64,000 nucleotides of DNA from a virus. A model generated the notes under the pieces. The model was not told the origin of the DNA, made no database searches, and was given only the letters and a program-made list of their open reading frames with translations. Where the stretch lies: IMG/VR virus record IMGVR_UViG_3300028625_000001, positions 1 to 64,000 of that record; one strand, given 5' to 3'. The position numbers and the translations under genes are program-made. Shown here one piece after another: positions 10,744-46,235 of the stretch (within the stretch, counting starts at the first letter, position 1; every line of letters starts with the position of its first letter).

Positions 10744-10758
10744 ACGGAGGTAAAACCT

Positions 10759-11109: not shown

Positions 11110-11141
11110 TACAGACCAGCTACTTCTTAAAGGTCATAAAA

Positions 11142-11453: not shown

Positions 11454-11465
11454 AAGGACTCTTTT

Positions 11466-24879: not shown

Positions 24880-27366
24880 ATGTTGCCAAAAACAAGGACG
24901 GTGTTTGTTTTGAAAAGATTAGTCAGAGACAAGATTGACGAGGATCTGAAAAAGATACTCGGCAAAGACGCCAACCTTGACCTATTGACTAGGCAGGACA
25001 TGGTTGAATTGGTGGCCGCGGCCATGCTTCCGGGCAACCAGAAAGTTTTTACAGATAGAGCGAAAGGCATATACGCCGCCAGACTCAAAGAGTGGGAAAA
25101 GGATGAAGAGACCCGTTTGCTTCAAGAAGAGAAAGAGCAAGCGCAGAAGGAGCGAGACCAGGCGTCCGCTTTAGATCCTAATGATCCTCTCTTTGACGAT
25201 GAGAACTATACGTATTATCGAAAGCACGGGCCTAAGAAATTTATTTCTAAACGAAGGAAAGAGTTTGCTAACGAATACGACTTGAGCAACCCGGCCGACT
25301 CTTCTCAAATCCATACAGTAATAGTCGCGGAGCTCAGGCTCATGCAACTTACTGAGCAAGTAGAGATGTTGATTGCTGAGAATGAAGTCATTGGGAACGA
25401 TCTATACAGAGACATAGAAACGACTAGAATTTCGCTCTCGAAAGCGTTGTCTGACCTGTCGATACTAAAAAGGTTCAGGCCGGAGGACGAAACTAAAAAC
25501 AACCTTGCGGATCTCGTTAAGTTATACGATAAGTATTACGATATACCTCAGAAAGACTTGCTAAGGCATATACGAAATGAAAAAGTTGGCAAGACCTTGA
25601 CTGAAGAACAGATTGAAGAGATATCCAATCTAAGAAAGAAAATTAGGAACGATGAAGAAAACCAGGTTCCGATCCCCAAGCATTACCTTGAAGCTGTAAA
25701 AAAAAATATCTTGACTGAATCTGAACTTCTCTTTATAGAACATCTAAGAAACGACCCGGTTTATGCTGCCAAAGTCTTGTACGATATTTCTCTTGACTGG
25801 TATCAGGTAATGGTGCTTAGGAGCTGGTGGCAATTTAAGCCGTTTTATATGTATCTTGGAGCCCGTGGTGTTGCCAAGACTTTTCTCGGAGGGTTATATT
25901 CACTTTTGGTAATATCTCTCTTCACGAAAGAGATAGTGATTATTGTTGCCCCCTCTTTTAGACAGTCTTCGCAGATGTGGCAAGAAGCATCGAATGTTGT
26001 GACCGGGCAAAAAGGCAACGATTCTGATGTCGGACTTGCCTGTCTCGATGGCGAACCAAAAAGGAACCCGGACCAGAGAGAAATCAACTCAAAGACCGGT
26101 TCGAGAATCCTTGCACTCCCTTTAGGAACTGGCGAGAAGATAAGGTCGAAGCGCGCCAGTCGCCTAATGATCGACGAAAGGCAAGATGTGCCGCAATATG
26201 CTTTAGATGTCGTTGTAAAGCCTTTTGCCAACGTCAGTCAGAATCCTATGGAAAGGATTAGACAAAAACAGATGGGTATGGAGGCCGACCCCGCTTTCAG
26301 CATCATAAACTCCGGGACTGCCGGATTTGAAGATACCCCTTACCATAAAGACTTCCTTCATTTCATGGGAGAAGATGGAGACAAATATCAGCTAGACATA
26401 ATTACGATTGACGATCCTTCGCCAGGCTATATCAACGAAGACATTGTAGAAGACGTTAAAAGGTCGTTGAAAGACGATACGGGACTTTTCGGAGCGGAGT
26501 ATTATGGGAAGTTCATTTCGCAACAAAACATCTTCTATCCCCCATCTCTATTCTTAGACGCTTGTAGCGAACGGTGCCCCGTAAGGCTTATGGGACATCC
26601 AGGGAAAGAATACTATCTCGGGATTGACCCTATTAGCGGCGGCGAGACTACCGGAGATGTCATGGTTGTTTCAGTTTTTGAATATGACCCGGCGTTTGAT
26701 TATGCCAACCTTGTTTACCTGAAAGGTATTCATTTTGAATATGCTAAAGACCTAGCAAACTTTATCAGGGAACTGGTTGTCAGCTTTGAACACAATAATG
26801 GAACGGTCGCGGGAATAGCTCTTGAAATGCGTGGTGGAGGTTTCTCTATAAGAGAAAGACTTATGGAGGAAGGAGTCGTGAAGAACCCATTCACACTTAA
26901 AGACGCCAGAGTCCCCCCGCTTATTCCGGTCGATTCGCCTGACGACATTATCGGTCGGCGGCTGGTCCATTGCATTTTCGGAAATTCAACATTGAACATG
27001 GTTCACCATTTCAACTTCAAAGAAGCACTCAACAACCACGAACTTTACTTACCTAAAGAAGCCACTACACAAGACAAACAATTGGACAGGCAGTATTTTG
27101 CCGAAATCCAGTCGATATTTGATGAGTTTATCATTCTTCGACAGGAGGCAAAGAGCCTGGTGACTAAAACCACCAGAGGTGGTGATATTGTTCTACAACC
27201 CCCTTCTGATAGATATCACGACGACTATGTATTTGCCTCGATTAGAGGATATTCGCTTGTAAAAGAGAGACAACTTCAGGGTAGCAAACGTAAAGCGAAA
27301 ACAAAATTGATTATCCATGATGGCTCTCTTTGGGCTACGGGAGGCAACGCCTATGGAATTAGATAA
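24880..27366 (+). CDS. terL: terminase large subunit with long N-terminal extension
   Basis: Walker A-like LGARGVAKTF and Walker B LMIDERQD at about aa 325-430. Followed by the portal-sized ORF. No RBS at 24880, so the start is uncertain. Confidence 0.65.
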   Translation: MLPKTRTVFVLKRLVRDKIDEDLKKILGKDANLDLLTRQDMVELVAAAMLPGNQKVFTDRAKGIYAARLKEWEKDEETRLLQEEKEQAQKERDQASALDPNDPLFDDENYTYYRKHGPKKFISKRRKEFANEYDLSNPADSSQIHTVIVAELRLMQLTEQVEMLIAENEVIGNDLYRDIETTRISLSKALSDLSILKRFRPEDETKNNLADLVKLYDKYYDIPQKDLLRHIRNEKVGKTLTEEQIEEISNLRKKIRNDEENQVPIPKHYLEAVKKNILTESELLFIEHLRNDPVYAAKVLYDISLDWYQVMVLRSWWQFKPFYMYLGARGVAKTFLGGLYSLLVISLFTKEIVIIVAPSFRQSSQMWQEASNVVTGQKGNDSDVGLACLDGEPKRNPDQREINSKTGSRILALPLGTGEKIRSKRASRLMIDERQDVPQYALDVVVKPFANVSQNPMERIRQKQMGMEADPAFSIINSGTAGFEDTPYHKDFLHFMGEDGDKYQLDIITIDDPSPGYINEDIVEDVKRSLKDDTGLFGAEYYGKFISQQNIFYPPSLFLDACSERCPVRLMGHPGKEYYLGIDPISGGETTGDVMVVSVFEYDPAFDYANLVYLKGIHFEYAKDLANFIRELVVSFEHNNGTVAGIALEMRGGGFSIRERLMEEGVVKNPFTLKDARVPPLIPVDSPDDIIGRRLVHCIFGNSTLNMVHHFNFKEALNNHELYLPKEATTQDKQLDRQYFAEIQSIFDEFIILRQEAKSLVTKTTRGGDIVLQPPSDRYHDDYVFASIRGYSLVKERQLQGSKRKAKTKLIIHDGSLWATGGNAYGIR

Positions 27367-28687
27367 TCTTGTGCTTGAGTTCAATCCCGGCATATTCTCT
27401 CTCGGGACAATAAAAAGCGTAGCGATGAAGACTATTAACGGAAGCCCTCTCTCTATTTCTTCTTCAGACGAGATGTCGTCAGACGAAATAGTCTTGATGC
27501 AGAACTGTCTTGACGCGTATTTTAATGATGAAATCGTCGGTGGAGCCATAGAGATTGCTGTGGGATTGAGCATTTCAGATTATACCCTTACACAGGTAGA
27601 TGAACAAAATGCGGATCTATATAAATGGTATATCGATGAGATTCTTGACATAGACAGCTTTCTTGAAGATGTTTTTTGGGGACTTCTTGTCACAAATAAT
27701 GTATATCTTCAGAGAATACTAGGGGTTGAAGAGGTCCCTAACGACATCAAAATAAAGAACTCAAAAGCGATTGTCGGGCGGTATCAGAATATAAACCCTC
27801 TTTCGGTCATTATTGAAGGGGCTTTGAATGAGCCTGACAAACTTACATACATAGTTACTACCGAAGGGGATGACGCAGAAGAAGAGACCCTAAAGGCTGA
27901 GGAAATAATTCATATATCCGATAAAAGACCATATCAACGCTATGGAATACCGATGCTTAAGAGGGCATTGCCCGCGCTGCTTCGTAAAACAAAAATGAAT
28001 CAGGCGGACGTAGCCACGCTCAATGGAATAATCCATCAAATAGTTTTGATAACACTTGCTTCTCCCGAAGAAGGAGAGTTAGAAGATATAAGCAGTAAGT
28101 TGACGAACATCGCTAGAGCGATGACAATTGTCTATGATGACAGGTTGAAAGTCGAGTTTAAGCACCCGGACACCAACATCCTTAATCCGACCAAGTATAA
28201 CGATGTCAATGACACTATAGCAAATGCGACAGGCGTCAACTTTGGGTTTACCAACAAAGAAACCAGTTATGCTTCAGGGACAATAGACTTAAGGTTGCTA
28301 ATTAAGAGACTAACCAGACTACGTAAGATTGTTGCCAAAGTCATAACGAAAGAGCTTCGCCGTTTTGCAACTGCCGTTGGATTGAAAGACCGTGTTCTTT
28401 TCAAGTTTAAACCGTTCGATCTTGAGAATGAGAAGTATATAGGCTCCGTTCTCTTGCCACTCCGCCGGGAAGGTCTCCTTTCTGCAACTACAGCACTTAA
28501 CAGCGCAAACTTCAATCCTGACTATGAGTTTAAGCAACTTCAGGAGGAATTGGCGCTACAAAAGAAGGGGTTGTTGCTTCCGTTCAATAACAGTCCAAGA
28601 GCCGGGAGACCTGCCGGGACCACATCACAAAACGACTATCCAGAAGAAAGAAATGAGATCACCGACTCCCCAACGGGCAATCAATAA
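27317..28687 (+). CDS. portal protein (positional call)
   Basis: 456-aa ORF overlapping the terL 3' end. Size and position are typical for a portal protein. No motif recognised. Confidence 0.5.
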   Translation: MMALFGLREATPMELDNLVLEFNPGIFSLGTIKSVAMKTINGSPLSISSSDEMSSDEIVLMQNCLDAYFNDEIVGGAIEIAVGLSISDYTLTQVDEQNADLYKWYIDEILDIDSFLEDVFWGLLVTNNVYLQRILGVEEVPNDIKIKNSKAIVGRYQNINPLSVIIEGALNEPDKLTYIVTTEGDDAEEETLKAEEIIHISDKRPYQRYGIPMLKRALPALLRKTKMNQADVATLNGIIHQIVLITLASPEEGELEDISSKLTNIARAMTIVYDDRLKVEFKHPDTNILNPTKYNDVNDTIANATGVNFGFTNKETSYASGTIDLRLLIKRLTRLRKIVAKVITKELRRFATAVGLKDRVLFKFKPFDLENEKYIGSVLLPLRREGLLSATTALNSANFNPDYEFKQLQEELALQKKGLLLPFNNSPRAGRPAGTTSQNDYPEERNEITDSPTGNQ

Positions 28688-35995: not shown

Positions 35996-36295
35996 GGGGA
36001 TGACAAGGTTTCGACAGGGCTGTACAAGTATTGACCTCATGCCGTCGAGAGACGTAAAACCTAAACTAAGAACTGACAACCCATTACTTGAAAGAGCGGC
36101 TGCTTAGTCGCTCCCCGTCCGAAAATTTCCTACTCTTATATCGGGTTACGGGTCATAAAGAGTAGGGCTACGAGCCCCAAGTTTGTGTAGAAGTTCTTGT
36201 TAAAAACTTCTATTCGCCTCCAAGCATAGGAAAGCATGTAAAGGGTCGGCATGGAACAGTTTTGGACCCGGGTTCGACTCCCGGCATCTCCACCA
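35996..36295 (+). ncRNA. ssrA: tmRNA (one-piece SsrA)
   Basis: 5' GGGGATGACAAGGTTTCGACAGGG and 3' GGACCCGGGTTCGACTCCCGGCATCTCCACCA form the tRNA-Ala-like domain. An internal frame ends ...D-N-P-L-L-E-R-A-A-A-TAG (stop 36105-36107). Confidence 0.85.
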
Positions 36296-36357
36296 GCTCT
36301 TTTGCCAGTGCACACCAGTAGAACGGAAAGACCTTTTTCATCAAACCTCCTTTCAAG

Positions 36358-36399
36358 CGGGGTCATGGTTTAGGCGGGGTTCGATTCCCCGCGGCCCCG
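36358..36399 (+). other. tRNA-like acceptor/T-arm minihelix (no D or anticodon arm)
   Basis: GGGGTCA pairs with CGGCCCC (6/7 including a G-U). CGGGG-TTCGATT-CCCCG is a perfect T-arm. Only 9 nt separate the 5' acceptor strand from the T-arm. Confidence 0.45.
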
Positions 36400-36443
36400 T
36401 CAGAGTTGGACAAACTCATTACTGGCATTTCGTTTGAAAGAAC

Positions 36444-36517
36444 TGAGAGATAGTGTAATGGAAACACACTTGATTTTGGCTCAAGTGATATAGGTTCGAA
36501 TCCTATTCTCTCAGCCA
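36444..36517 (+). tRNA. tRNA-Gln (UUG), CCA encoded
   Basis: Acceptor TGAGAGA/TCTCTCA. D-arm GTGT-AATGGAA-ACAC. Anticodon arm CTTGA-TTTTGGC-TCAAG. T-arm ATAGG-TTCGAAT-CCTAT. Ends G-CCA. Confidence 0.85.
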
Positions 36518-36568
36518 GTCTCATAAGAGACGACGGTGCTTGCAACTGAAACTCACCCCTAAAATAAA

Positions 36569-36647
36569 GCCGATGTCTTCTAAAAGGAAAGATAAGCTCC
36601 TGCCGTGAGAGGGGCAGAGAATGTGAGTTCGAATCTCACCATCGGCT
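36569..36647 (+). tRNA. tRNA-like gene with oversized anticodon region (identity unresolved; GCC at nominal 34-36)
   Basis: Perfect acceptor GCCGATG/CATCGGC. U8, A14, G18G19 and A21 present. T-arm GTGAG-TTCGAAT-CTCAC. The region between D- and T-arm is 6 nt too long, and the best hairpins have 8-nt loops. No CCA. Confidence 0.5.
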
Positions 36648-36787
36648 TTAGTTTTGTCGGCCACAAAACGTACAAACGTTTGTCTTGCAGAGCTACTTTT
36701 GTCGGGTCTTTTTACCCGGCAATTGTCGCTCGTCGGGGGGTGCCGGTCTTGGTGCCGACCCCCCGATATTTTTATGGAGGAAGTGAG

Positions 36788-37480
36788 ATGCAAAAATTGA
36801 TAGTTGCGTTCGAAGGAATCGATGGTGCGGGAAAAACAACACAGATCCGAATGGCAGAGAGTTATCTTCAAGATAAGGGAGTTCTCTGTAAAAGGTTCCG
36901 AGAGCCTGGCGGCACAAAACTTGGCGAAACCTTAAGGGATATTATACTTAATAATCCTGATATAAACATCTATTCTGAGACAGCCCTATTTGCCATAGCC
37001 CGCCGGGAATTGATAGAAAATGAAGTTTGCAAAGCTGTGCAAAATGGCGAAATTATTTTACTCGATCGATCTTTCTATTCTTCTTTAGCTTACCAAGGAG
37101 TGCGTTTTGGCTATGATGGTACGTATATAGTGCGAGAAATCAATTACAGCATCCTTGGTGGATTAAAAGAATATCTTCCTACTCATATATTCTTCTTTGA
37201 CCTTTCGCCAGACATAGCCTTGGCAAGGATTGATAAAAGGGGACAACAGGCGACTCGTTTTGAAACATCTTCTGATGGGGATTATCTCAGTAAAGTTGCC
37301 GAGAAATATAAACTGGTTTTGTCCAGTTCCTGGAGTCCTATTGCCTCTGAGACTTTCTTTTTCAATGCAAACCAACCCCCTTCGACTATTTTTTTGAAAG
37401 TGAAGACCGTATTAGATTACCTTATTTTTCTACGAGAAACCGAGTTAGACCGAATACTAAAAAAGGAGGAGTCGGTGTGA
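36788..37480 (+). CDS. tmk: thymidylate (dTMP) kinase
   Basis: FEGIDGAGKTTQ P-loop and REPGGT motif. ORF 36605..37480 trimmed to ATG 36788 after GGAGGAAG. Confidence 0.85.
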   Translation: MQKLIVAFEGIDGAGKTTQIRMAESYLQDKGVLCKRFREPGGTKLGETLRDIILNNPDINIYSETALFAIARRELIENEVCKAVQNGEIILLDRSFYSSLAYQGVRFGYDGTYIVREINYSILGGLKEYLPTHIFFFDLSPDIALARIDKRGQQATRFETSSDGDYLSKVAEKYKLVLSSSWSPIASETFFFNANQPPSTIFLKVKTVLDYLIFLRETELDRILKKEESV

Positions 37481-37872
37481 CAAGAAAGAAGTTAATTCTA
37501 GTCCTTTCAGCTGTCGTAGTAGCCTTCATTATCACGGGCTGTGTGCAGATTACAGGACTTCCGAACCTAAGCGGTGCCTGGACTCTTACGATGAATCCAT
37601 ATGCTCAAGACATAGAGTTCGACATGACAGTTATCCAGGAAGAAGGTTCTTTATCCTTTGAGGCTGAGGCTGATAACCCTGCAATAATCGTGTCTGGCGG
37701 GGCAGTAACCTACAGCCCGATAAACAGAGTAGGGATGACGGTAACAGTTAATGGACATCTATACTCTCTGTTTGGGGAAGTGAAAACAGACCTACTGACT
37801 GGCTTTTTGCGAGACGGAGTTTATGGTGACGTAGTAGGCCATTGGTCTGCTACCAAAGGAGTGATGGAATGA
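37477..37872 (+). CDS. lipoprotein (131 aa)
   Basis: Signal peptide LILVLSAVVVAFIITGC with lipobox I-T-G-C. GTG after AAGGAGGAG. Confidence 0.6.
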   Translation: MTRKKLILVLSAVVVAFIITGCVQITGLPNLSGAWTLTMNPYAQDIEFDMTVIQEEGSLSFEAEADNPAIIVSGGAVTYSPINRVGMTVTVNGHLYSLFGEVKTDLLTGFLRDGVYGDVVGHWSATKGVME

Positions 37873-38492
37873 GAAAACTTGTATGTATTCTTACTCTTAT
37901 CCTGGTGGTGACATTAATCTTCGGCATAAAAATAGCTCCCTTTGTAGATGCTGACAGTTTTGGGAAGCTTGACGTGGGGGCGGAGCTCTTCCTTACCGAA
38001 GATATAGTAGACCTGTCTGTGAAAGGAGTATATGATGTTCCAGCAAAAGACCTATATCTTGACGGATTGCTCACCCTTAAAAACGACATAGGTTTTCTCA
38101 AAGTCAAAGGGAGTTATGAAACGACCGGTGCTTCACCTACGATAGGATTTTTGGCAACAACCTCACCACTAAAGCTTGATGTTTTTAGTATCTATGGAAT
38201 AGCTGGAACTGGAGATTTTAGAAACAACGATTTTGGCAACAAGGTGCTTGGGGACCTCTTGGCAGACAATAAAGCGCTCTCTGTGTTGGGGGGCGCGAAA
38301 CTAGGACTCGGTTATACGTGGTTTGATCTATCTGCTAAGTTGGAGGCTGGGTACTTTATAAAAGCTGAAGAATACCAGGTGGCTGCTATTGTTGATGGCA
38401 AGTTATTTACTCTGATTGATGTAAAAGCTAAACTTGTACTACTTCCTGAATTTTCATGGTCTGTCTTTGCGCAAACGACTTTTGAGTTCTAA
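37869..38492 (+). CDS. secreted beta-rich protein, possible outer-membrane beta-barrel (207 aa)
   Basis: Trimmed to ATG 37869 (overlaps the upstream stop). Signal peptide MRKLVCILTLILVVTLIFG. Alternating-hydrophobic strands. C-terminal ...TTFEF (terminal Phe). Confidence 0.5.
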   Translation: MRKLVCILTLILVVTLIFGIKIAPFVDADSFGKLDVGAELFLTEDIVDLSVKGVYDVPAKDLYLDGLLTLKNDIGFLKVKGSYETTGASPTIGFLATTSPLKLDVFSIYGIAGTGDFRNNDFGNKVLGDLLADNKALSVLGGAKLGLGYTWFDLSAKLEAGYFIKAEEYQVAAIVDGKLFTLIDVKAKLVLLPEFSWSVFAQTTFEF

Positions 38493-38507
38493 TTATTGAT
38501 TGAAAGT

Positions 38508-38629
38508 TGCCCCGTGGCGGAATGGTAACGCCTAGCAAAACGGTAGGTCGATACGGTGGGGGTGTCCCCGCCGTCCAAACAGCTCGGAAGAGTCTGGATT
38601 CGTTGTGGGTTCAAGTCCCACCGGGGCCG
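38508..38629 (+). tRNA. tRNA-like gene with about 50-nt extra structured insert (122 nt)
   Basis: Acceptor (T)GCCCCG/CGGGGC(C). D-arm GGCG-GAATGGTAA-CGCC. T-arm GTGGG-TTCAAGT-CCCAC. Internal 8-bp hairpin at 38554-38573 and a GGAA-tetraloop hairpin at 38582-38593. No canonical anticodon arm found. No CCA. Confidence 0.45.
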
Positions 38630-38638
38630 TTATATATG

Positions 38639-38714
38639 GGTAGTTTAGGTTAAATTGGCAAACCGCTTTGGCTCATAAGCCAGAGAAGCGCGGGTTCAAA
38701 TCCCGTAACTGCCC
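38639..38714 (+). tRNA. tRNA (CAU; Met/Ile2-like) with an irregular 8-nt anticodon loop
   Basis: Acceptor GGTAGTT/AACTGCC. D-arm GGTT-AAATTGGCA-AACC. T-arm GCGGG-TTCAAAT-CCCGT. Anticodon arm CTTTGG-CTCATAAG-CCAGAG is 20 nt rather than 17. No CCA. Confidence 0.55.
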
Positions 38715-38720
38715 ACAGAC

Positions 38721-38894
38721 TTGACGGTGGCGGAACTGGTAGACGCTATCGTGGCCTTTTGGCAACGCACAACAAAAGTGCGACCTTGCAGTTATATGAC
38801 TGTATTTGGTGGGGCTCGATGAGAAAACATCGAAAACAAACTTGCTAGAAGATAGACCCCAATCTTCGTATAGGTTCGAATCCTGTCCGTCAAG
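38721..38894 (+). tRNA. class-II-like tRNA-like gene with about 90-100-nt insert (174 nt)
   Basis: Perfect acceptor TTGACGG/CCGTCAA. Leu-like D-arm GCG-GAACTGGTAGA-CGC. T-arm ATAGG-TTCGAAT-CCTGT. Variable-arm-like hairpin GAAGAT/ATCTTC (38848-38867). Several internal hairpins. No CCA. Confidence 0.45.
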
Positions 38895-38923
38895 TTAGTA
38901 ACTTTTCTCCTATCTAAGGAGGA

Positions 38924-40378
38924 TTGGTCTATTTTTACAAGGGGGAGGGAACTGAATTGATTGTAGAAGATTTAGTCGTTAAAGAATTATCCGTGGGCAA
39001 TTCATATTCAAAAGAAGGTGTCTTGGACAAAGACAGAGTTTTGACAGTTAGCAAGGTAAAAATCGGCGATAAGACTAGCAATGTTGAAACGATCGATGAG
39101 GAACGAAACGCTTATCTAAAGACCGTACACATTGGGACGCCGGAGTCTAGTATTGAGATCATTGACGAGGACGGCAACGTCCTTCAGAGGCTCCCGGTTG
39201 GCGCTCCGGCGATAGCCACCGCCGCTTCAACCGACTTAACAATCTCTGGTGGAGTATCTAACGGAGAACTAATCGTTATTGGCGACTCTATTATTGAAGT
39301 CAATGACACGACCGCCAGTGATGAAGGTTATGAGCTCCTTAATACTGCCGAAGGAACGAAGACACAGGCCAGCGGTGAAATTACCGTGAGTGCTGCCCCA
39401 GCACACCTCGATTATGTCCAGGTCGGGGAAGACATATACGTTATGGACCTTATTGGAGACGGAGTGAGCGCGGGGGCTATCCAGGTCGATCTTTCAGCTT
39501 TTTATGAAGCTTCAACTGCTACCCTCGCTTTTTCAGACGTAGTATCCGATGGGGAAGTTGTAGAAATCAACGGAGTTAGTTTTGAGTTTGATACCGACGG
39601 CGAGATCACCGAAGGAAATGTAAGAGTTTGGATTGGCGCAAACACCACTGCGGGCGCTGCAATTATTGCTCTCGCTTCAGTTATCAGAGGCAACACGGCT
39701 TGTGGCGTCAATGCAGTCGATGGTGACGGAGACACTTTGGTTGTTACAGCTAGAACATTAGGTACTGTCGGCGACGCCATTACTGTTTCTACCACCTGCG
39801 CGAACGCCTCCTGGGGCGTTGATGTAACCCATCTTGCAGATGGAGCCAGTGCAACTCCCGCAGAGACCATAGCGGCTATTGTGGCAGCTTCTGCCGGTGG
39901 AACGGAAGCCGTTACCATAACTGCCGGTGAAGGCGACGATGCAGGCAAATTACTTATTGCCGCAACTGCCGCTGGTGTTCTTGATGGATCTGCCGGTAAC
40001 TCATGTGTGCTTGCGGTTTCCGGGGCTGGATTTACAGCAAGCGCTTCTACTCTTGAGGGAGGCACCGACATGACGGCAGCCGAGGCTATAGCGGCCCTTG
40101 ACGGAGTAGAGCTCCCTGAAGCAACTCTTGAGGCTGGTGAAGGACTTGTGGCAGTTACAGCCAACGAAGCTGGAGTCGCGGGAAACGCGATTGAAGTCTC
40201 TACGACTATGGAAAATGCCGCCTTTGATGGTGAATACCTTGAGGGCGGCATTGACGGCGGGGAATATACGGAAGCCGATGCGAGAATTGCCAGATATGCC
40301 GACGGTTATCTATATATAGGCGAATGGGTAAACGGGGCAATGAAATGGTATGCCTGGCAGGGGACTGCCTTGAACTAA
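38924..40378 (+). CDS. Ala/Gly/Thr-rich protein (484 aa), possible virion fibre/decoration protein
   Basis: TTG start after AAGGAGGA. Long low-complexity A/G/T/V-rich core. The Ala-rich minus-strand ORF 39502-40251 is its shadow. Confidence 0.55.
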   Translation: MVYFYKGEGTELIVEDLVVKELSVGNSYSKEGVLDKDRVLTVSKVKIGDKTSNVETIDEERNAYLKTVHIGTPESSIEIIDEDGNVLQRLPVGAPAIATAASTDLTISGGVSNGELIVIGDSIIEVNDTTASDEGYELLNTAEGTKTQASGEITVSAAPAHLDYVQVGEDIYVMDLIGDGVSAGAIQVDLSAFYEASTATLAFSDVVSDGEVVEINGVSFEFDTDGEITEGNVRVWIGANTTAGAAIIALASVIRGNTACGVNAVDGDGDTLVVTARTLGTVGDAITVSTTCANASWGVDVTHLADGASATPAETIAAIVAASAGGTEAVTITAGEGDDAGKLLIAATAAGVLDGSAGNSCVLAVSGAGFTASASTLEGGTDMTAAEAIAALDGVELPEATLEAGEGLVAVTANEAGVAGNAIEVSTTMENAAFDGEYLEGGIDGGEYTEADARIARYADGYLYIGEWVNGAMKWYAWQGTALN

Positions 40379-40390
40379 AGAGCAACGAGT

Positions 40391-40460
40391 AAGCGGGAAA
40401 GCTCATTGGAGAGCGCCCTAACAGATGGGGAGGTTGTGGGTCCGAATCCCGCCTCGCTTA
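40391..40460 (+). tRNA. tRNA-like gene with a short (15-nt) anticodon arm, loop AACAGAT (CAG with A33)
   Basis: Acceptor AAGCGGG/CCTCGCTT, extendable to 9 bp. D-arm GCTC-ATTGGA-GAGC. T-arm GTGGG-TCCGAAT-CCCGC (TCC rather than TTC). No CCA. Confidence 0.4.
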
Positions 40461-40483
40461 CTAGATTAGTTAGGGGGGAGAAC

Positions 40484-40609
40484 ATGATAAAGCGATTGAC
40501 TAATTGGTTCAAACGTCAGTGGAAGAAAGATATTGCGATAAACAGACAGCATACAGAAAGCATATATAACGCGTCGGACATTTTCGGAATCCCAGGAATA
40601 AGAGGTTAG
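40484..40609 (+). CDS. small basic protein (41 aa)
   Basis: ORF 40406..40609 trimmed to ATG 40484 after AGGGGGGAG. The upstream part overlaps the tRNA-like gene. Confidence 0.35.
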   Translation: MIKRLTNWFKRQWKKDIAINRQHTESIYNASDIFGIPGIRG

Positions 40610-40613
40610 GAGT

Positions 40614-40657
40614 AGGAGCGTAACTCAGTTGGTTAGAGTGCTGATCTGATACGTCAG
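40614..40657 (+). pseudogene. 5' two-thirds of tRNA-Ile (GAU), truncated at the omega-RNA scaffold
   Basis: AGGAGCG-TA-ACTC-AGTTGGTTA-GAGT-G-CTGAT-CTGATAC-GTCAG is a canonical acceptor 5' strand, D-arm and anticodon arm. No variable loop, T-arm or 3' acceptor strand follows. Confidence 0.7.
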
Positions 40658-40897
40658 TCAACGACCCACGGCTAAAGCCGGGAGCTTGTAGCTCTTGTTG
40701 ACCAGCTTGAGTGTTTTGAGCACTACGTTACGGGTGAATACATAGGCACTCCGGGGTGACGCCACCAGCCCCGGACACTGCGGTGAATGATTAAACAGGT
40801 TGAGGGTCTAAACCAGTGTTGTTCACATTAAACCACTTGATAACATTGGCGAGGTGGACTTTACCGGCGTATGCCGAGAATTGAGAGGTAACTATCT
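40640..40897 (+). ncRNA. IscB omega-RNA (putative 16-nt guide 40640-40655 plus about 240-nt scaffold)
   Basis: Structured leader directly upstream of iscB. Homologous to 6862-7137. Contains conserved hairpins such as CCACGGCT-AA-AGCCGGG and AGTG-N7-CACT. Confidence 0.7.
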
Positions 40898-42207
40898 ATG
40901 CAACGTGTATTTGTAGTTGACAAAAACAGAGAGCCACTGATGCCGTGTCATCCAGCGCGGGCAAGGGAATTACTAAAAAATAGACGGGCAAAAGTGTTAC
41001 GCCGCTACCCGTTCACCATCATCCTGCTGGACCGTGAGGGTGGTGATGTACAACCAGTTGCATTGAAGATTGACCCGGGTAGCAAAACTACAGGGTTGGC
41101 GCTGGTCGCTGATGGCCAGCGTGGGAAACGCGTGGTATGGGCAGGCGAACTTAACCACCGTGGAGAACAGATAAAAGCAAGTATGCTGTCAAGAAAACAG
41201 TTGCGGCGTGCACGCAGATCACGTAAGACTCGCTACCGTCAGCCGCGTTTCGACAATCGCCGCCGGGCCGAGGGGTGGATACCGCCGTCGCTGCGAAGTC
41301 GCGTGGACAACGTGTTGACATGGACAGAACGATTGCGTAGGTTCACACCTATCTGCGCCGTGAGTATGGAGTTGGTGAAATTTGACACACAGGCTATGCA
41401 AAACCCGGAAATCAGTGGTATTGAGTATAAACAAGGCGAATTGATGGGATATGAAGTGCGTGAGTATTTGCTTGAAAAGTTTGGTCGAAGGTGTGCTTAT
41501 TGCGGAGCGACTGGCGCGCCACTAGAAATCGAACATATTATTCCAAAGTCTCGTGGTGGGTCAAATAGGGTAAGCAACCTAACACTGTCTTGTACCGTAT
41601 GTAATCAGCATAAAGGCAATCAGACGGCAACAGAGTTCGGACATCCAACAATTCAGGACAAAGCGAAGCAACCATTGAAAGATGCGGCGGTTATGAATAC
41701 AACACGTTGGACACTTTATCGCAGCTTAAAACAATTAGGCTTACCAATGGAAGTCGGTACTGGTGCACGGACTAAATACAATCGAGTACGACAGAATTAT
41801 CAGAAAGAACACTGGATTGACGCAGCCTGCGTGGGTGTAAGCGGAGAAAAAGTGTATATATCTTCTGGCACAATACCACTGGTTATTAAGGCTACCGGTC
41901 GCCAGTCACGTATCATGTGTCGCCCGGATAAGTACGGTTTCCCGCGCACGAAAGCTAAACAAGGCCGTGTTCACTACGGTTTCCAGACGGGCGACATCGT
42001 GCTGGCAACAATTCCTGAAGGTAAACATACCGGGGTACATATTGGACGTGTGGCAGTTCGTAACAGACCATCGTTTCGACTGAACGATTTTGATGTACAT
42101 CCAAAATACTTAAAAGTTTTGCATCATTCAGACGGCTACAGTTATCAGTGAAAGGAGGGAGCGCCATTCCTCACCGCGCTAAAGCACGGTGTCCCCTGGC
42201 GCAATTT
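40656..42207 (+). mobile_element. IS200/IS605-superfamily OMEGA element (omega-RNA + iscB + right end), no tnpA
   Basis: The boundaries are where similarity to the 6862-7197 copy starts and stops. The right-end hairpin CACCGCGC-TAAA-GCACGGTG covaries with CCCCACAGC-TAAA-GCAGGGG in the mini copy. Confidence 0.6.
40898..42151 (+). CDS. iscB: IscB RNA-guided nuclease (PLMP, split RuvC, bridge helix, HNH, TID)
   Basis: REPLMPCHPARAR (PLMP). KIDPGSKTTGLAL (RuvC-I). RRARRSRKTRYRQPRFDNRRR (bridge helix). MELVKFD (RuvC-II). CAYCG...EIEHIIPKSRGGSNRVSNLTLSCTVCNQHKGN (HNH). EHWIDAACVG (RuvC-III). 417 aa. Confidence 0.85.
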   Translation: MQRVFVVDKNREPLMPCHPARARELLKNRRAKVLRRYPFTIILLDREGGDVQPVALKIDPGSKTTGLALVADGQRGKRVVWAGELNHRGEQIKASMLSRKQLRRARRSRKTRYRQPRFDNRRRAEGWIPPSLRSRVDNVLTWTERLRRFTPICAVSMELVKFDTQAMQNPEISGIEYKQGELMGYEVREYLLEKFGRRCAYCGATGAPLEIEHIIPKSRGGSNRVSNLTLSCTVCNQHKGNQTATEFGHPTIQDKAKQPLKDAAVMNTTRWTLYRSLKQLGLPMEVGTGARTKYNRVRQNYQKEHWIDAACVGVSGEKVYISSGTIPLVIKATGRQSRIMCRPDKYGFPRTKAKQGRVHYGFQTGDIVLATIPEGKHTGVHIGRVAVRNRPSFRLNDFDVHPKYLKVLHHSDGYSYQ

Positions 42208-42209
42208 CT

Positions 42210-42476
42210 ATGGGAATAAAAGCAAAGACGTTGTGGGTGCACGTTAGGTCTTCAGGTTCATATCAGGCATTGTACATTAACGGAATTAAAGAAATCGAAG
42301 GCGAACAAATAGACATTGTTGAAGCTTTTGACCTCTTGGCCGAAAGAACGAATAACGAAGCCTATATCCTCGATTATACATACGAAGACATAGACGAGGA
42401 AGAAGATCCTTTTGATAATGCAGTAGATCGTGACTTCGATTTCCCGGAATCGCTTGACAAAAAGGACGTTATATAG
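42210..42476 (+). CDS. hypothetical protein (88 aa), paralog of 6575-6814
   Basis: ORF 42189..42476 trimmed to ATG 42210 by alignment with paralog A. The ATG abuts the element right end. Confidence 0.5.
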   Translation: MGIKAKTLWVHVRSSGSYQALYINGIKEIEGEQIDIVEAFDLLAERTNNEAYILDYTYEDIDEEEDPFDNAVDRDFDFPESLDKKDVI

Positions 42477-42560
42477 CAGATAGGGTAGTTTATTCTGCAA
42501 GATGGTCAAAATAAAGAACAAAACTAGAGTTTTGCAGAATAATGCAGAAAAGAAAAACGC

Positions 42561-42689
42561 GGGCGCATGGCAAAATTGGCAGATGCTATCGTGACCGAAA
42601 GGTTAGGAGTCTCGTGAGTGAACACGTGAAAAAGCTCGCTAGAATGGGGATCTTGACCATTCGTACAGGTTCGAATCCTGTCGCGCCCA
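42561..42689 (+). tRNA. class-II-like tRNA-like gene with about 50-nt insert (129 nt), paralog of 38721-38894
   Basis: Acceptor GGGCGC(A)/(C)GCGCCC. D-arm GCA-AAATTGGCAGA-TGC. T-arm ACAGG-TTCGAAT-CCTGT. Shares GCTATCGTG...GCTAGAA...TTCGT with 38721. GAAA-tetraloop hairpin at 42590-42607. No CCA. Confidence 0.45.
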
Positions 42690-42699
42690 TTAGACCCCG

Positions 42700-43000
42700 G
42701 CAGGGTCATATTAAACCAGAGAGCAGTTAAGTCTTTCTGTACCAATAGCCGGGTGCAGTCTCTGTTGTAATCCGTTGGCCCGTTTCAGGTACAGAGACGA
42801 AGCAGAAGCGGGCATAAAATTAACCTCCATATCGGACCTTCCGATGGACGCATCGAGAACGGCTAACCGGTATGGCAGAATTGATCCCCACGTCCGCCCT
42901 GCATGTCGACGGGCAGTGATAGGTCAACGGGCGTGGTAGTTAATCCGCGGGACAGTACGCCGAGCCGCTGAAAGGGAAAGTCCTTATGTGACCGGAGTAC
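42700..43000 (+). ncRNA. candidate structured RNA (about 300 nt, unclassified; some group-I-intron-like boxes)
   Basis: ORF-free and more GC-rich than its flanks. Many perfect helices: CCCGGC/GCCGGG, GTCTCTGT/ACAGAGAC, ATCGGA/TCCGAT, GGCGT/ACGCC. Motifs GAAGCGGGCAT, TAATCCGCGGG and AGGGAAAGTCC. Confidence 0.35.
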
Positions 43001-43004
43001 GAGC

Positions 43005-43075
43005 AGAGGGGTAGCTTAATAGGTAAAGCTGATCTCATCCATGGATGTATGCAGGTTCGAATCCTGCTCCCTTTG
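43005..43075 (+). tRNA. tRNA-like gene, loop CATCCAT (UCC with A33), short variable region
   Basis: Acceptor AGAGGGG/TCCCTTT (two G-U pairs). D-arm GCTT-AATAGGTA-AAGC. T-arm GCAGG-TTCGAAT-CCTGC. 4-bp anticodon stem. No CCA. An alternative perfect 5' strand AAAGGGA lies at 42971. Confidence 0.45.
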
Positions 43076-43089
43076 CTAGAAGGAGTTGG

Positions 43090-43620
43090 TTGGTTGTGTT
43101 TTTTAGAAAAACGTTGAAGGAAATAATTTCCAAGATTACCAAGGGGAATTTAGTAATATGCAACAAGGTCAAGTATGTAGAAGAGGCCGTCAACGACGAA
43201 CGCCAATTGATATATGGTCTTAGCGGCGAGATAAAAGCGCTTCGAGATGCGATAGTAGAGAACCCTTTTGCTAATCCTCAAAAGGGGAATTTATCTATCC
43301 AACAAGAAGTGTATATAGAACACAGCGACGGGGCTAGGGAAAAGACGGACGAACTCCGCCGCTTAGTCCTTGGAGCAACTTATAAACATTTCAAAGGAGA
43401 CAACTATAGAGTCCTTGGACTTGCAAAACACCACGAAAGCGGCGAAATACTGGTAATTTACCAGATGGTATATAACTACCTAAACACTTATTTGTCGATA
43501 GCTACCGTCGGCGAAATCTATGCCCGGCCAATAGATGACTTTCTTTGTCTGGTAGAGCGCGACGGGGAAGTTAAACAAAGATTCCAGCTTATAAGCGAGC
43601 TGAGAAAGGAGGAGACATGA
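43090..43620 (+). CDS. DUF1653-domain protein
   Basis: ATYKHFKGDNYRVLGLAKHHESGEILVIYQ...YARPIDDF resembles the DUF1653 core. Start is TTG 43090 or GTG 43096, after AAGGAG. Confidence 0.55.
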   Translation: MVVFFRKTLKEIISKITKGNLVICNKVKYVEEAVNDERQLIYGLSGEIKALRDAIVENPFANPQKGNLSIQQEVYIEHSDGAREKTDELRRLVLGATYKHFKGDNYRVLGLAKHHESGEILVIYQMVYNYLNTYLSIATVGEIYARPIDDFLCLVERDGEVKQRFQLISELRKEET

Positions 43621-43889
43621 ACGGCGCTAAGGAATATGCAGAGAAATATTTTATAGCAATCAGTGGATATGAAACAGATGTTCGTTACGCCTTAAACATT
43701 GCTTTCTTTAGGAGACTGGCGGTAAGAATGGGCGCCGCCGATGATCCCGATGCGGACGCGCTTCTTAAAAAAGGCGATGAGTTCTATAAAGAAAACAGAG
43801 ATGAAATATTAAAGGCATTACGGGCGAATCCATCTTGGACATCAGAAGAAGAAGCATATATAGAAAAAGAAATAACGGGAGGGAATTGA
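43617..43889 (+). CDS. hypothetical protein (90 aa)
   Basis: ATGA overlap with the upstream stop. Confidence 0.55.
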   Translation: MNGAKEYAEKYFIAISGYETDVRYALNIAFFRRLAVRMGAADDPDADALLKKGDEFYKENRDEILKALRANPSWTSEEEAYIEKEITGGN

Positions 43890-43891
43890 GA

Positions 43892-44245
43892 TTGACTAAA
43901 CGTTTTTGCGATCATTGCGGTGAAGCGATCCCTGACAAAGATAGTTTTTATACCGTTGAACTTAACGGCAAGCAGTATGATTTTTGTTCTATAGCCTGTC
44001 ATGAGGCGTTCGTCGCCGCACATAAAGATGAGATCGAAAAGCATCAGCTTGAAAGAAGAAACAAAGAGCTTGACAAAAGACATAAGGAACTTGAGGCAAG
44101 GATTCATAAGTTAGAAGAGCGAATCTCTTCTCTTGAAATGATGGAAATGTGGAAGGAATTTTTCCCTGTGCAATTCCCTGACTTGCAAGTTGCCTCGGAT
44201 ACTAATGAGAGCGCCAGACTCCCCTTTGTTACTTATACCCTTTAG
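43892..44245 (+). CDS. zinc-binding (CxxC...CxxxC) coiled-coil protein (117 aa)
   Basis: ORF 43835..44245 trimmed to TTG 43892 after GGGAGGG. FCDHCGE...DFCSIACHEAF. Confidence 0.5.
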   Translation: MTKRFCDHCGEAIPDKDSFYTVELNGKQYDFCSIACHEAFVAAHKDEIEKHQLERRNKELDKRHKELEARIHKLEERISSLEMMEMWKEFFPVQFPDLQVASDTNESARLPFVTYTL

Positions 44246-44255
44246 CAAAATACAG

Positions 44256-44329
44256 GGCGAGGTAGAGTAGCGGCCACTCGAAGGTCTCATAAGCCTTATA
44301 GGAGGGTTCAACTCCCTCCCTCGCTCCCA
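44256..44329 (+). tRNA. tRNA-Met (CAU), CCA encoded
   Basis: Acceptor GGCGAGG/CCTCGCT. D-arm GAGT-AGCGGCC-ACTC. Anticodon arm AAGGT-CTCATAA-GCCTT. T-arm GAGGG-TTCAACT-CCCTC. Ends C-CCA. Confidence 0.85.
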
Positions 44330-44382
44330 GGATAGGCATCTTACATACCCGAAAGTAACTTACTCAAGAGTATCTTGTTTGC

Positions 44383-44468
44383 GGCGGGGTAGTCTAATTG
44401 GCAAGGCAGCGGTCTTGAAAACCGTCGGGCGAAAGCCTTTGAGAGTTCGACTCTCTCTCCCGCCGCCA
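44383..44468 (+). tRNA. tRNA-Ser (UGA), class II, CCA encoded
   Basis: Acceptor GGCGGGG/TCCCGCC. D-arm GTCT-AATTGGCA-AGGC. Anticodon arm GCGGT-CTTGAAA-ACCGT. Variable arm GGGC-GAAA-GCCT. T-arm GAGAG-TTCGACT-CTCTC. Ends G-CCA. Confidence 0.85.
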
Positions 44469-44490
44469 GAAAAGATTAGGAGATGAATAG

Positions 44491-44952
44491 GTGAACCCCT
44501 TTTTTAAGTATCTGAAATACCTGCTAAAACATCGTTGGTACGTATTTGTCGAATGTTGTAAGTTAGGAATTCCTTGGCGAGGTTTAACACATGACATAAG
44601 CAAGTTCCTGCCTGATGAATGGATTCCTTATATGCGACATTTCTACATGTCATACATAACCAGACCGGAATGGAAGACGCAATATAACATTGCATGGCTT
44701 AAACATCAAAACCGAAACAGACACCATTGGCAATATTGGCTACTCTGGAAAGATAGCGGCAAGGTCTTACCTCAAGAAATGCCAATGAGATACCGAAAAG
44801 AGATGTTGGCAGATTGGCGTGGCGCCGGACGCGCCATTACCGGGCGAGACGACACAAGAGAGTTCTACCTAAAGAATAAAGACAATATAACTCTCGCACC
44901 AGAAACTAAACGATGGGTAGAGGCAAAATTAGGGATAGATCGATCGAATTAA
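44491..44952 (+). CDS. hypothetical protein (153 aa, His/Trp-rich)
   Basis: GTG after TTAGGAG. LTHDISKF...HQNRNRHHWQYW. No family assigned. Confidence 0.5.
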   Translation: MNPFFKYLKYLLKHRWYVFVECCKLGIPWRGLTHDISKFLPDEWIPYMRHFYMSYITRPEWKTQYNIAWLKHQNRNRHHWQYWLLWKDSGKVLPQEMPMRYRKEMLADWRGAGRAITGRDDTREFYLKNKDNITLAPETKRWVEAKLGIDRSN

Positions 44953-44962
44953 AGGAGGGATA

Positions 44963-45262
44963 ATGCCGTGGCTTAACTTCTATTTTTGGAGGGAACCCAT
45001 GAGCAGAAGCTATACAAAAGCAGTCAGGATTCATCGAGGAAAACCTAAAACGGCCAGAAAGAACAACGCAAGAGTTTGTAGACGGAAAGTAAAACAGTTT
45101 ATCAAAGGCAGGAAGTTGGATAAGGCTGCAAGCTACGCTGGGAAAGACCACTATTCAACATTCTACGAGGTTTGGGAATTAAAGGCTGTCTGGTTTGTAG
45201 AAGAACTCTATAACTGGATATATAAAGGGAAAGAAAGTCTAAAAAAGCTTAGAAGTAAATAG
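44963..45262 (+). CDS. basic small protein (99 aa)
   Basis: ATG after AAAGGAGGG. Confidence 0.5.
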   Translation: MPWLNFYFWREPMSRSYTKAVRIHRGKPKTARKNNARVCRRKVKQFIKGRKLDKAASYAGKDHYSTFYEVWELKAVWFVEELYNWIYKGKESLKKLRSK

Positions 45263-45354
45263 TTAGGTTCGTCGAAGAGGGGTAAGTTTCAATGAGAGCA
45301 ATCATGTTCTCAATGCGACTTACCCTCATTTTTTATCAACAGGAGGCTTTTAAA

Positions 45355-45813
45355 ATGGAAGTCTTTTATAGCAACAAGTTATTGACAATCGCCTTATCCA
45401 TAGTCTTTCTTCTATTGTGTGGAAACTTTTCATTATCAACCTACATGCTCAACGCTCCGCCTCTAGTTATTAGAGGGGATCTCTCTGGCGCGAAAGTCGC
45501 CTATGGCTCCGCTCCGGCAGCGTTTCAGTCTCTCTTTACTATTCATCTTAATGAGAAAGTCGGAAATTATACAACCATCAGGCATGAGTATCAACACTAT
45601 ATACAAAGTGCCCTATTAACTCCATTTGGTGCGGCGATAGGCTATCAATGGCAGCGATGCATATTGGGCAAAAGCTACAATGAGAACTGGTTTGAACTAG
45701 ACGCAGACCGGGCAAGAGAAGACGGCCTGATGTTTGATGTTTTTGTCTGGAACACTAAAGAACTTGTCACCATAATACCAGGACAATACTACTTCGATCT
45801 AGGGGTGGAATAA
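45355..45813 (+). CDS. membrane-anchored HExxH protein (putative metallopeptidase-like), paralog 1
   Basis: Trimmed to ATG 45355 after ACAGGAGG. TM helix LLTIALSIVFLLLCG. IRHEYQHYIQSALLTPFG contains HEXXH. Confidence 0.5.
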   Translation: MEVFYSNKLLTIALSIVFLLLCGNFSLSTYMLNAPPLVIRGDLSGAKVAYGSAPAAFQSLFTIHLNEKVGNYTTIRHEYQHYIQSALLTPFGAAIGYQWQRCILGKSYNENWFELDADRAREDGLMFDVFVWNTKELVTIIPGQYYFDLGVE

Positions 45814-46235
45814 TGGAAAATCTATACACAAACCCGTGGGTAACTATCCCCCTCACGATACTATACGCTTGCCTTGCGTTGAATTTTGCCGGGGCAATTT
45901 TTGCGTTGAACGCCGACCCGATATTGATCCCAATAGAAACCAAAAACCCTTCATTCACAGGAATAACGATAGCGCCTTTCATAATACTTAAAAACGAATG
46001 TTTGACATACACAGATTTAAGACGCGAATACCAGCATTATATGCAGCAATCGTTGTTGACGCCTTTAGGCTTCTTAGGATTCTATATTGGAGAATACTTA
46101 CTTGAGGGTAGTTTTGACAATGTATCTTTTGAACAAGAAGCCGTCAAGAAGGAAAACGATTCTCTTGAGTTTGAGGTGTTCAACATAAAGACTTTTAAGA
46201 AGATGAAAGTATATTCAGACATGGGGGGGGATTGA
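45813..46235 (+). CDS. membrane protein, degenerate paralog of 45355-45813 (REYQH instead of HEYQH)
   Basis: LRREYQHYMQQSLLTPLG aligns with the HEXXH region of the upstream gene. N-terminal TM segments. Confidence 0.5.
   Translation: MENLYTNPWVTIPLTILYACLALNFAGAIFALNADPILIPIETKNPSFTGITIAPFIILKNECLTYTDLRREYQHYMQQSLLTPLGFLGFYIGEYLLEGSFDNVSFEQEAVKKENDSLEFEVFNIKTFKKMKVYSDMGGD

Follow-up and report, generated by a model that had tools for sequence, protein, structure and literature searches.

What does a phage gene encode when it keeps the acceptor stem, D arm and T arm of a tRNA and has a long structured insert in place of the anticodon arm? This question is raised by three loci on the + strand of a 64,000-nt stretch of DNA, here called the window (IMG/VR virus record IMGVR_UViG_3300028625_000001, positions 1 to 64,000), namely elements A (38508-38629, 122 nt), B (38721-38894, 174 nt) and C (42561-42689, 129 nt). 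A previous sequence-only reading had drawn attention to them and offered two explanations: tRNAs with a new class of small intron, or tRNA-derived non-coding RNAs (ncRNAs) under selection for structure. Based on the results presented here, B, C and their relatives D-G are a conserved, structurally constrained family of tRNA-Leu-derived RNAs. We find it probable, though well short of certain, that A, B and C encode structured ncRNAs of tRNA origin that do not decode, undergo tRNA-type processing and serve as tRNA mimics.

tRNA frames lacking an anticodon arm

A canonical tRNA frame, comprising a 7-bp acceptor stem with discriminator, a D arm with A14 and G18G19 and a T arm with a UUCRANY loop, was found in the elements. 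The acceptor stem of A consists of six pairs (GCCCCG/CGGGGC) plus U.C, and its D and T arms are GCGGAAUGGUAACGCC and GUGGG-UUCAAGU-CCCAC. Element B has seven pairs (UUGACGG/CCGUCAA), or eight counting C-1:G73, the D arm GCGGAACUGGUAGACGC and the T arm AUAGG-UUCGAAU-CCUGU (38870..38886). In C, the acceptor GGGCGCA/CGCGCCC (six pairs plus A.C) is combined with the D arm GCAAAAUUGGCAGAUGC and the T arm ACAGG-UUCGAAU-CCUGU. Everything that forms the elbow and the acceptor end of a tRNA is present, with no nucleotide of the tertiary core lost: the paired acceptor stem, U8, A14, A15/U48, G18G19, a UUCGAAU T loop and a long variable arm. These data bear out the previous description of three tRNA-like loci, each with a paired acceptor, a Leu/Ser-like D arm and a perfect T arm.

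The D and T arms of A, B and C are separated by 71-120 nt. Within A, B and C, no consistent 5-bp anticodon stem with a 7-nt loop, U33 and a purine at position 37 was found, and all three were skipped by ARAGORN with default settings and by Rfam at the gathering score. In a permissive Rfam run, the tRNA model RF00005 aligned C at 29.3 bits (gathering score 29), with a 65-nt insertion replacing the anticodon loop; A and B were not reported. No intron, ribozyme, riboswitch, transfer-messenger RNA (tmRNA) or Y-RNA family was found inside the inserts at E<=10 (38300-43200). The reported lack of a 5-bp/7-nt anticodon arm thus stood, and neither ARAGORN nor Rfam showed a consistent one. Single-sequence folding of the three elements beat that of shuffled sequences (z = -1.9, -3.0 and -3.1). 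It should be noted that the absence of an encoded CCA, which had also been pointed out, is true of A, B and C but does not discriminate them, as the neighbouring tRNA-Gly (43005) and CAU tRNA (38638) likewise do not encode it.

A junction module under structural constraint

Relatives were reached through homologues of the two flanking proteins (Logan, JGI, ENA and NCBI assemblies) and by a pattern scan of metagenomes. In this way, B/C-type orthologues or paralogues were recovered from different samples in at least ten additional contigs of one phage clade, including L005, L025, L089, L106, L127, L128, L129, L131 (two copies) and L132. The search for homologues in metagenomic phages proposed earlier was productive. 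The distinct B/C-type sequences are six, B to G: D (L005:1709-1835), E (L025:6137-6263, with identical copies in L106, L127, L128, L129, L131 and L132), F (L089:2071-2197, in a different gene context) and G (L131:12682-12810, the orthologue of C). Since L131 has one E-type and one C-type copy and the window has B and C, two paralogues per genome are possible. The neighbouring protein is 69-85% identical among the phages that keep the elements.

In the B/C-type elements, a conserved three-way-junction module stands in place of the anticodon loop. It is made up of a 5-bp remnant of the anticodon stem (P_ac), a coaxial GNRA-capped hairpin (H1), a side hairpin (H2) with an AGUGAA or AGAAAA loop and an A-rich return strand. 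In C, the acceptor stem (42561..42567 : 42682-42688; nt 1-7 : 122-128 of the element) is followed by U8 and G9 (nt 8-9) and by a class II D arm of the tRNA-Leu type (42570..42586; stem nt 10-12 : 24-26), in which A14, A15 and G18G19 are conserved. P_ac (42587..42591 : 42637-42641; nt 27-31 : 77-81) is UAUCG/CGCUA with an invariant central U.C. H1 (42592..42605; nt 32-36 : 41-45), UGACC-GAAA-GGUUA, has 5 bp and a tetraloop and stands directly on P_ac. A junction strand GGAGUCU (42606..42612; nt 46-52; GGAGNNN, with GGAG invariant in C and E types) leads to H2, CGUG-AGUGAA-CACG (42613..42626; nt 53-56 : 63-66), and then to the A-rich strand UGAAAAAGCU (42627..42636; nt 67-76), whose AAAAA and CU positions are invariant. 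The element continues with a long variable arm, H3 (42642..42662; nt 82-87 : 97-102; 6 bp and the 9-nt loop GGAUCUUGA), a linker containing U48 (nt 103-104), the T arm (42665..42681; nt 105-121) and the discriminator (nt 129), which is A in C and G and G in B, D, E and F. Across the family the H3 loop is 8-9 nt long, and in its position and shape H3 corresponds to the variable arm of a class II tRNA.

In the expanded member B, the junction is enlarged to a five-way one. P_ac (38747..38751 : 38843-38847) is UAUCG/UGCUA, with one G:C pair changed to G:U. H1 (38752..38765), UGGCC-UUUU-GGCAA, was read from the sequence; in the model alignment it falls into an insert region. Between H1 and the junction strand, two extra hairpins (38766..38804), CGCAC-AACAAAA-GUGCG and UGCAGU-UAUAUG-ACUGUA, are present in no other member. 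H2 (38817..38832), CGAUG-AGAAAA-CAUCG, has one added A:U pair, and the variable arm H3 (38848..38867) is GAAGAU-AGACCCCA-AUCUUC. The paralogy of B and C suggested earlier across the insert borders is real: the common borders GCTATCGTG ... GCTAGA ... TTCGT are present, and the family model R1, which scores C at 141 bits, links B to it at 69.5 bits (E 4e-12). The hairpin after the D arm with differing tetraloops, UUUU in B and GAAA in C, was likewise recovered as H1.

Selection on this structure is indicated by the five C/E-type sequences, in which 96.5% of the cells are standard pairs and both sides have changed at 13 pairs; none of 500 shuffles attained the observed values. When the partners were slid by 1-3 columns as a control, pairing fell to 35-46%. 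Once B joins through the covariance model, the pairs changed on both sides number 16, a count in which the alignment of B leans towards the structure because it was fitted to that model. By helix, covariation involves 6-7 pairs of the acceptor stem, where both-side changes were seen at 6 of 7 pairs across the family, one pair of the D stem, three of H3 (stems AAUGG/CCAUU, AGAGG/CCUCU, GAGGG/CCCUC and AAGAU/AUCUU) and one of the T stem, while H2 contributes through B and through G, which has G:U instead of G:C. H1 is 100% paired, with double changes at two pairs and single changes at two. The acceptor stems are 97% paired and nearly wholly different in sequence (GGGCGCA, UGUCUUG, UGCUCUG and UUGACGG). 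In spite of this, the unpaired insert motifs GGAG, AGUGAA, AAAAA, CUCGCUA and GGA-CUUGA are constant between paralogues. Rewritten acceptor stems together with constant unpaired insert motifs are the opposite of what would be expected for a passive intron or decaying DNA. Of the two earlier explanations, that of tRNA-derived ncRNAs under structural selection is the one supported by these 13-16 covarying pairs, by the six distinct sequences from several metagenomes and by the invariant unpaired motifs.

The same results bear on the idea that the elements are decaying, functionless tRNA pseudogenes with junk or mobile-element insertions. Damaged tRNAs do occur in the same island, such as a tRNA-Ile truncated by an IscB/HEARO element, and several other tRNAs there are irregular. 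However, decay does not account for compensatory changes in five helices, and covariation already disfavours it; moreover, the elements were kept in phages between which the neighbouring protein has drifted to 69-85% identity. The inserts were not found outside these tRNA frames, so they are not a dispersed mobile element. Decay is, in our opinion, hardly credible.

Element A is less clear. It follows the same plan with a divergent insert, which consists of a 9-bp GC hairpin (38553-38574), the sequence AAACAGCUCG and a second hairpin (38585-38602), and AGCUCG...GGAU...UUCGU is common to A and C. The three elements had been presented as one kind; this is right for B and C, which are one family, but the homology of the A insert to the B/C inserts is not demonstrable.

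Several further motifs were considered for the insert. The junction strand (GAG/GGG) could form a pseudoknot with the H3 loop (CUU/CCC), and this pairing is retained in B, but 74 of 500 shuffles equal it, and it is not significant. A long-range GGUU:UUGACC pairing resembling the Y-RNA helix was rejected on account of a C.A mismatch in F, and a mini-ORF (open reading frame) of the C type with a Shine-Dalgarno sequence and GUG start does not keep its frame in D. By inspection, there was no good match to hammerhead cores, K-turn or box C/D motifs, nor to CsrA GGA sites, of which the B insert has none.

Decoding, processing and possible function

Could the inserts be introns of class II tRNAs (Leu or Ser), whose excision by an activity of the phage or host would leave a tRNA able to decode? 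The tRNA frame is complete, P_ac could act as an anticodon stem closing the insert, an RNA ligase of the T4 Rnl1 type is encoded in the distant relative L002, and ARAGORN in intron mode gives a call for each element. These calls, however, are Phe-AAA for A, Ser-GCU for B and F, Gly-ACC for C and G, and Ser-UGA for D and E, so that both the anticodons and the intron borders vary between orthologues. In the five elements C to G, the presumed anticodon is nothing but the 5' strand of H1, a strand that covaries with the opposite one. We deleted each possible segment between the D and T arms and reran ARAGORN on the 7,378 resulting constructs. No single deletion restored a canonical tRNA whose anticodon agreed between orthologues; the commonest products (Arg-CCG, Ser-UGA and Ala-GGC) differ between orthologues, and all use the H1 stem. 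The sole loops that P_ac can close after excision are AAAAACU, AAAAGCU and ACAAACU, in which position 33 is A or C and position 37 is C, instead of U33 and a purine. Furthermore, the inserts (45-95 nt) are below the size of known self-splicing introns, no group I, ribozyme or intron family matched 38300-43200 at E<=10, and a bulge-helix-bulge was not seen on inspection of the consensus structure (no dedicated search was run), P_ac standing on H1 without 3-nt bulges. The unpaired insert motifs are also better conserved than the acceptor stem, which would be exonic. The new class of small introns proposed by the sequence-only reading is therefore not supported, and an intron now seems to us unlikely.

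The sequence of the D arm, UGGCGGAAYUGGUAGACGC, is typical of tRNA-Leu from bacteria. When the T4 tRNAs were scored with R1, Leu (39 bits) and Ser (34 bits), both class II, ranked first, and the rest reached 23 bits or less. Judging from these sequence features, the ancestor would be a class II, tRNA-Leu-like tRNA. Charging by leucyl-tRNA synthetase (LeuRS) does not need the anticodon arm, and the identity criteria of tRNA-Leu are A73, U8-A14, the contact of G18/G19 with the T loop and the long variable arm, the anticodon not being required (PMC2377443). All of the listed features are carried by C and G, for which a complete leucine identity set is plausible, whereas B, D, E and F have G73. 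Since the C type has A73 and the tertiary core required by bacterial LeuRS and the anticodon arm is dispensable, leucylation is conceivable: the C type could be leucylated by LeuRS, and the E/B type probably is not. Elements B, D, E and F invariably combine a C at position -1 with a G discriminator, so the acceptor helix can reach 8 bp; this C-1:G73 arrangement is that of tRNA-His in reverse.

An extension of this idea would make the elements a new class of aminoacylatable, anticodon-less phage tRNA mimics. In it, the A73 paralogue would be charged by the host LeuRS, and the amino acid, the synthetase or EF-Tu would be delivered or withheld outside decoding; alternatively, the RNAs would serve as bait for a defence toxin that targets tRNA acceptors. 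The junction module would be a protein-binding handle. We regard this extension as speculative and its chances as small.

The islands of tRNA genes in phages are usually read as an aid to codon usage or as a replacement for tRNAs destroyed by host defences. For the elements described here, we suggest the following pathway. They would be transcribed together with the surrounding + strand genes and tRNAs. The 5' end would be cut by RNase P and the 3' end by the CCA-less pathway (UU trailer, RNase Z type), after which CCA would be added. The RNAs would accumulate as stable L-shaped molecules of about 125-175 nt, which cannot read codons because they have no anticodon. With their acceptor and elbow, the RNAs would look like a tRNA to the tRNA-binding proteins of the host, while something else would be bound or blocked by the replacement module and its invariant loops, the RNA being a decoy, sponge or adaptor. 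Features for processing and for recognition of the acceptor and elbow are kept and the anticodon is lost, which points to a function outside decoding, as in tmRNA, Y RNAs and the T4 species 1 RNA. With 125-175 nt and two paralogues per genome that differ at the discriminator, the elements would provide a compact example for tRNA mimics in infection. In addition, genes of this kind escape Rfam and tRNA finders run with default settings, and the number of comparable elements in viral metagenomes may therefore be underestimated.

The genomic context is compatible with the first steps of this pathway. No promoter-like or terminator-like sites were found flanking the elements, which makes co-transcription and tRNA-type processing the simplest assumption; the sole strong promoter-like site (11/12 matches) precedes the tmRNA. 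A UUAG trailer follows B, C, D, E, G and tRNA-Gly, and such a trailer fits the CCA-less 3' processing known from RNase Z substrates. Real tRNAs lie 4-8 nt away from the elements, inside a tRNA island.

Part of this context could also be understood if the elements were cis-acting punctuation for processing or stability, in which the tRNA shape only recruits RNase P and RNase Z to cleave the polycistronic transcript and so set the mRNA ends of the genes nearby, and the insert has no function. Apart from the missing promoter-like and terminator-like sites, such a role would agree with the site of the E/B type, which is always found between an outer-membrane-protein-like (OMP-like) gene of 207 aa and an Ala/Gly-rich gene of 473 aa on the same strand. 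However, an ordinary tRNA or minihelix would suffice for it, and it leaves unexplained the invariant loops, the covarying H1, H2 and H3, the presence of two paralogues per genome and the occurrence of F in an unrelated gene context. We consider punctuation quite improbable.

Several points weigh against the tRNA-mimic reading. The transcription, processing and stable accumulation of the RNAs are what we infer from sequence, and the decoy or adaptor step is pure inference. The family comprises six distinct sequences in all, from a single phage clade. P_ac is invariant, so covariation neither supports nor refutes this helix; most of H2 is invariant as well, and RNAalifold pairs the centre of the insert otherwise (54-59 : 74-79). 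Element A scores 31 bits with the family model, about the same as ordinary tRNAs (29 bits), and is a divergent member with a tRNA frame, no anticodon arm and no covariation support. Moreover, no co-encoded protein partner was found in the window and related contigs, and the neighbours of E and F are uninformative on a partner. Pfam analysis of about 50 ORFs (about 40 from the window, the rest from L025 and L089) revealed no RNA ligase, Ro60, CCA-adding enzyme/nucleotidyltransferase or synthetase; a PIN/PhoH-like protein, encoded in L025 about 4 kb away from E, was the one match with a link to RNA. As for the roles suggested earlier (decoy, processing module or primer), nothing in the sequence of the window or the related contigs would seem to indicate a particular partner.

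Among known systems, YrlA RNAs are tRNA-derived ncRNAs that keep or mimic the D arm, T arm and acceptor of tRNA, are substrates of tRNA enzymes and occur in phages (PMC4201824). The elements resemble them in being tRNA-derived ncRNAs with these three parts, and they might accordingly be seen as Y-RNA-like partners of a Ro60/Rsr protein, that is, circularly permuted YrlA. A distant relative, L004, does have a TROVE protein beside a YrlA-like RNA (34.5 bits) and other odd T-arm RNAs. On the other hand, the topology is opposite: YrlA is permuted, ends in the Ro-binding stem and has a loop-closed acceptor, whereas the elements end at the acceptor stem. YrlA also needs the Rsr-binding motif and a neighbouring Ro60 gene; with the elements, the GNCGAAN0-1G Ro-binding strand is absent from the terminal helix, and no TROVE gene was found in the 64-kb window (best tblastn E = 2.2 with the L004 TROVE) or in the gene tables of L005 and L127-L132. 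The YrlA model RF02553 gave 17.8 bits against a gathering score of 69, in a match covering the T arm of A only, and the family model has no match in L004. We conclude that a Y-RNA identity is very unlikely, and that the elements may, by analogy, work comparably to Y RNAs, through tRNA mimicry by an ncRNA, without being members of that family.

The neighbouring protein of L004 is 47% identical. TROVE/Ro60 is followed there (9236-12250) by T-arm RNAs with the recurring GGAUACUUCA, tRNA-Met, tmRNA and the YrlA-like RNA (12126-12246). A tRNA at 11670-11875 encodes CCA and has a perfect anticodon stem (CCGGC/GCCGG), and about 150 nt are inserted in its anticodon loop, with an 8-bp acceptor/T-arm minihelix at the end of the insert.

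The closest classical analogue is provided by species 1 and species 2 of phage T4 (rnaC and rnaD), small stable RNAs of unknown function that are encoded beside tRNAs in the phage tRNA cluster. In the 3' 92 nt of rnaC, an acceptor stem and a perfect T arm (CCGGG-UUCGAAU-CCCGG) enclose an interior unlike that of a tRNA. However, there is no homology of sequence or insert, and the R1 score of 18 bits is wholly due to the T arm and acceptor. In rnaC, moreover, the 5' end is extended, and a class II D arm or variable arm cannot clearly be made out. The elements share with tmRNA the order of acceptor 5' strand, D-region, large structured insertion, T arm and acceptor 3' strand. They differ from it in having a full D arm and no G3:U70 (3:70 is G:C, U:A, C:G or U:G), in having no conserved tag frame, which is shifted between C and D, in their length (125-175 against about 300 nt) and in giving no match to tmRNA models.

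Engineered tRNA scaffolds, in which a foreign module sits in the anticodon arm, and the tRNA-miRNA-encoded RNAs (TMERs) of herpesviruses show that a tRNA frame lends processing and stability to a foreign RNA module. This is an analogy only, as these systems are engineered or come from eukaryotic viruses and are not relatives of the elements. Irregular allo-tRNA-like sequences from soil metagenomes (Mukai 2017) are tRNA-shaped with long variable arms and, in some cases, proposed five-stem junctions; they are unusable in translation and are suspected of roles in mobile elements or toxin-antitoxin systems (PMC7609411). The acceptor/T geometry of allo-tRNAs is 8/4 or 9/3 with an anticodon loop, in contrast to 7/5 or 8/5 and no such loop in the elements.

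The RNA island and related contigs

The window is part of an uncultivated tailed phage, with genes for a large terminase (24880-27366), a portal (27317-28687) and a 3538-aa tail protein. Megablast and blastn searches revealed no nucleotide match to it among 50,697 phage records. The RNA island lies on the + strand between 35996 and 44468, and the T-loop motif GGTTCRANYCC occurs nine times in the window versus 0.39 expected by chance. The first part of the island includes tmRNA, an acceptor/T-arm minihelix within a long stem, tRNA-Gln, A, a CAU tRNA with an abnormal loop and B; the second part includes a weak tRNA-like sequence at 40392, a tRNA-Ile fragment with HEARO/IscB, C, a structured stretch of about 315 nt, tRNA-Gly, tRNA-Met and tRNA-Ser.

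In most relatives, the place taken in the window by A, the CAU tRNA and B is occupied by the E type. A conserved hairpin, GCUGACAG-CCGCCUUUGGGGAUGGGGGA-CUGUCAGC, was found immediately 5' of the E/D-type element (L005 1660-1707; also L025, L127 and L131), and the window has A and the CAU tRNA in its place. The contig L135 is identical to the window over 36001-46000, and the first bases of A also occur at the end of L134, from another sample. In the metagenome pattern scan, 3 of 119 loci were real (L025, L089 and L106); the pattern was too loose because GCTAGA is also present in ordinary D loops. Searches of IMG/VR with two DNA patterns and two neighbouring proteins and of GTDB genomes with a pattern gave no relative, each with one chance match (in an HU gene and in a coding region, respectively), and R1 had no members in the more distant relatives L002, L003, L004 and L006. 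The B/C-G family did not turn up in any collection of RNA families or sequences that was searched.

The tmRNA (35996-36295, + strand) was identified by ARAGORN and the Rfam tmRNA models and is the sole tmRNA match. Between it and tRNA-Gln (36300-36435), a long stem, GCCAGUG.../...CAUUACUGGC, surrounds an acceptor and T-arm minihelix (CGGGGUC ... GCGGGG-UUCGAUU-CCCCGC GGCCCCG) without a D or anticodon arm. The minihelix is kept in L127, L131 and L132 and has a weak mascRNA-like match (23 bits versus a gathering score of 42.5). Other tRNA genes in the island are also irregular. The CAU tRNA (38638-38716) has an anticodon loop of 6 or 8 nt (ARAGORN: 'cata'), tRNA-Gly (43005-43076) has A33 in the loop CAUCCAU, which is AACCCAU in L131, and the 68-nt tRNA-like sequence at 40392-40459 (28.3 bits) is kept in L005 and L127.

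At 40617-42215, the 5' part of tRNA-Ile(GAU), up to and including the anticodon arm, runs straight into a HEARO/omega RNA (40657-40864, 134 bits), which is followed by an IscB ORF (40898-42151, RRXRR and HNH). The tRNA-Ile is intact and without IscB in L005:3552-3627 and L131:12517-12593, which indicates that the IscB element inserted into a phage tRNA gene and deleted its 3' half. The putative guide immediately 5' of the omega RNA consists of tRNA-Ile sequence. A second HEARO RNA (6863-7190, 143 bits) has no IscB ORF behind it; the stretch that follows (GTGAAAGGAGG...GCTAAAGC...) is similar to 42152-42215, which trails the IscB ORF, and this second copy looks like an ORF-less miniature derivative of the IscB element.

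Finally, the stretch of about 315 nt between C and tRNA-Gly (42690-43004) is GC-rich and non-coding, with a consensus fold of great stability (-108 kcal/mol). At E<=10, no Rfam family matches the stretch, which is possibly a large RNA not described before. It is kept at L131:12811-13141, there with a clean 16-nt hairpin insertion, and its 3' end, GCCGCTGAAAGGGAAAGTCCTTATGTGAC, was found again at L004:11920-11950, likewise just 5' of a tRNA-like sequence.

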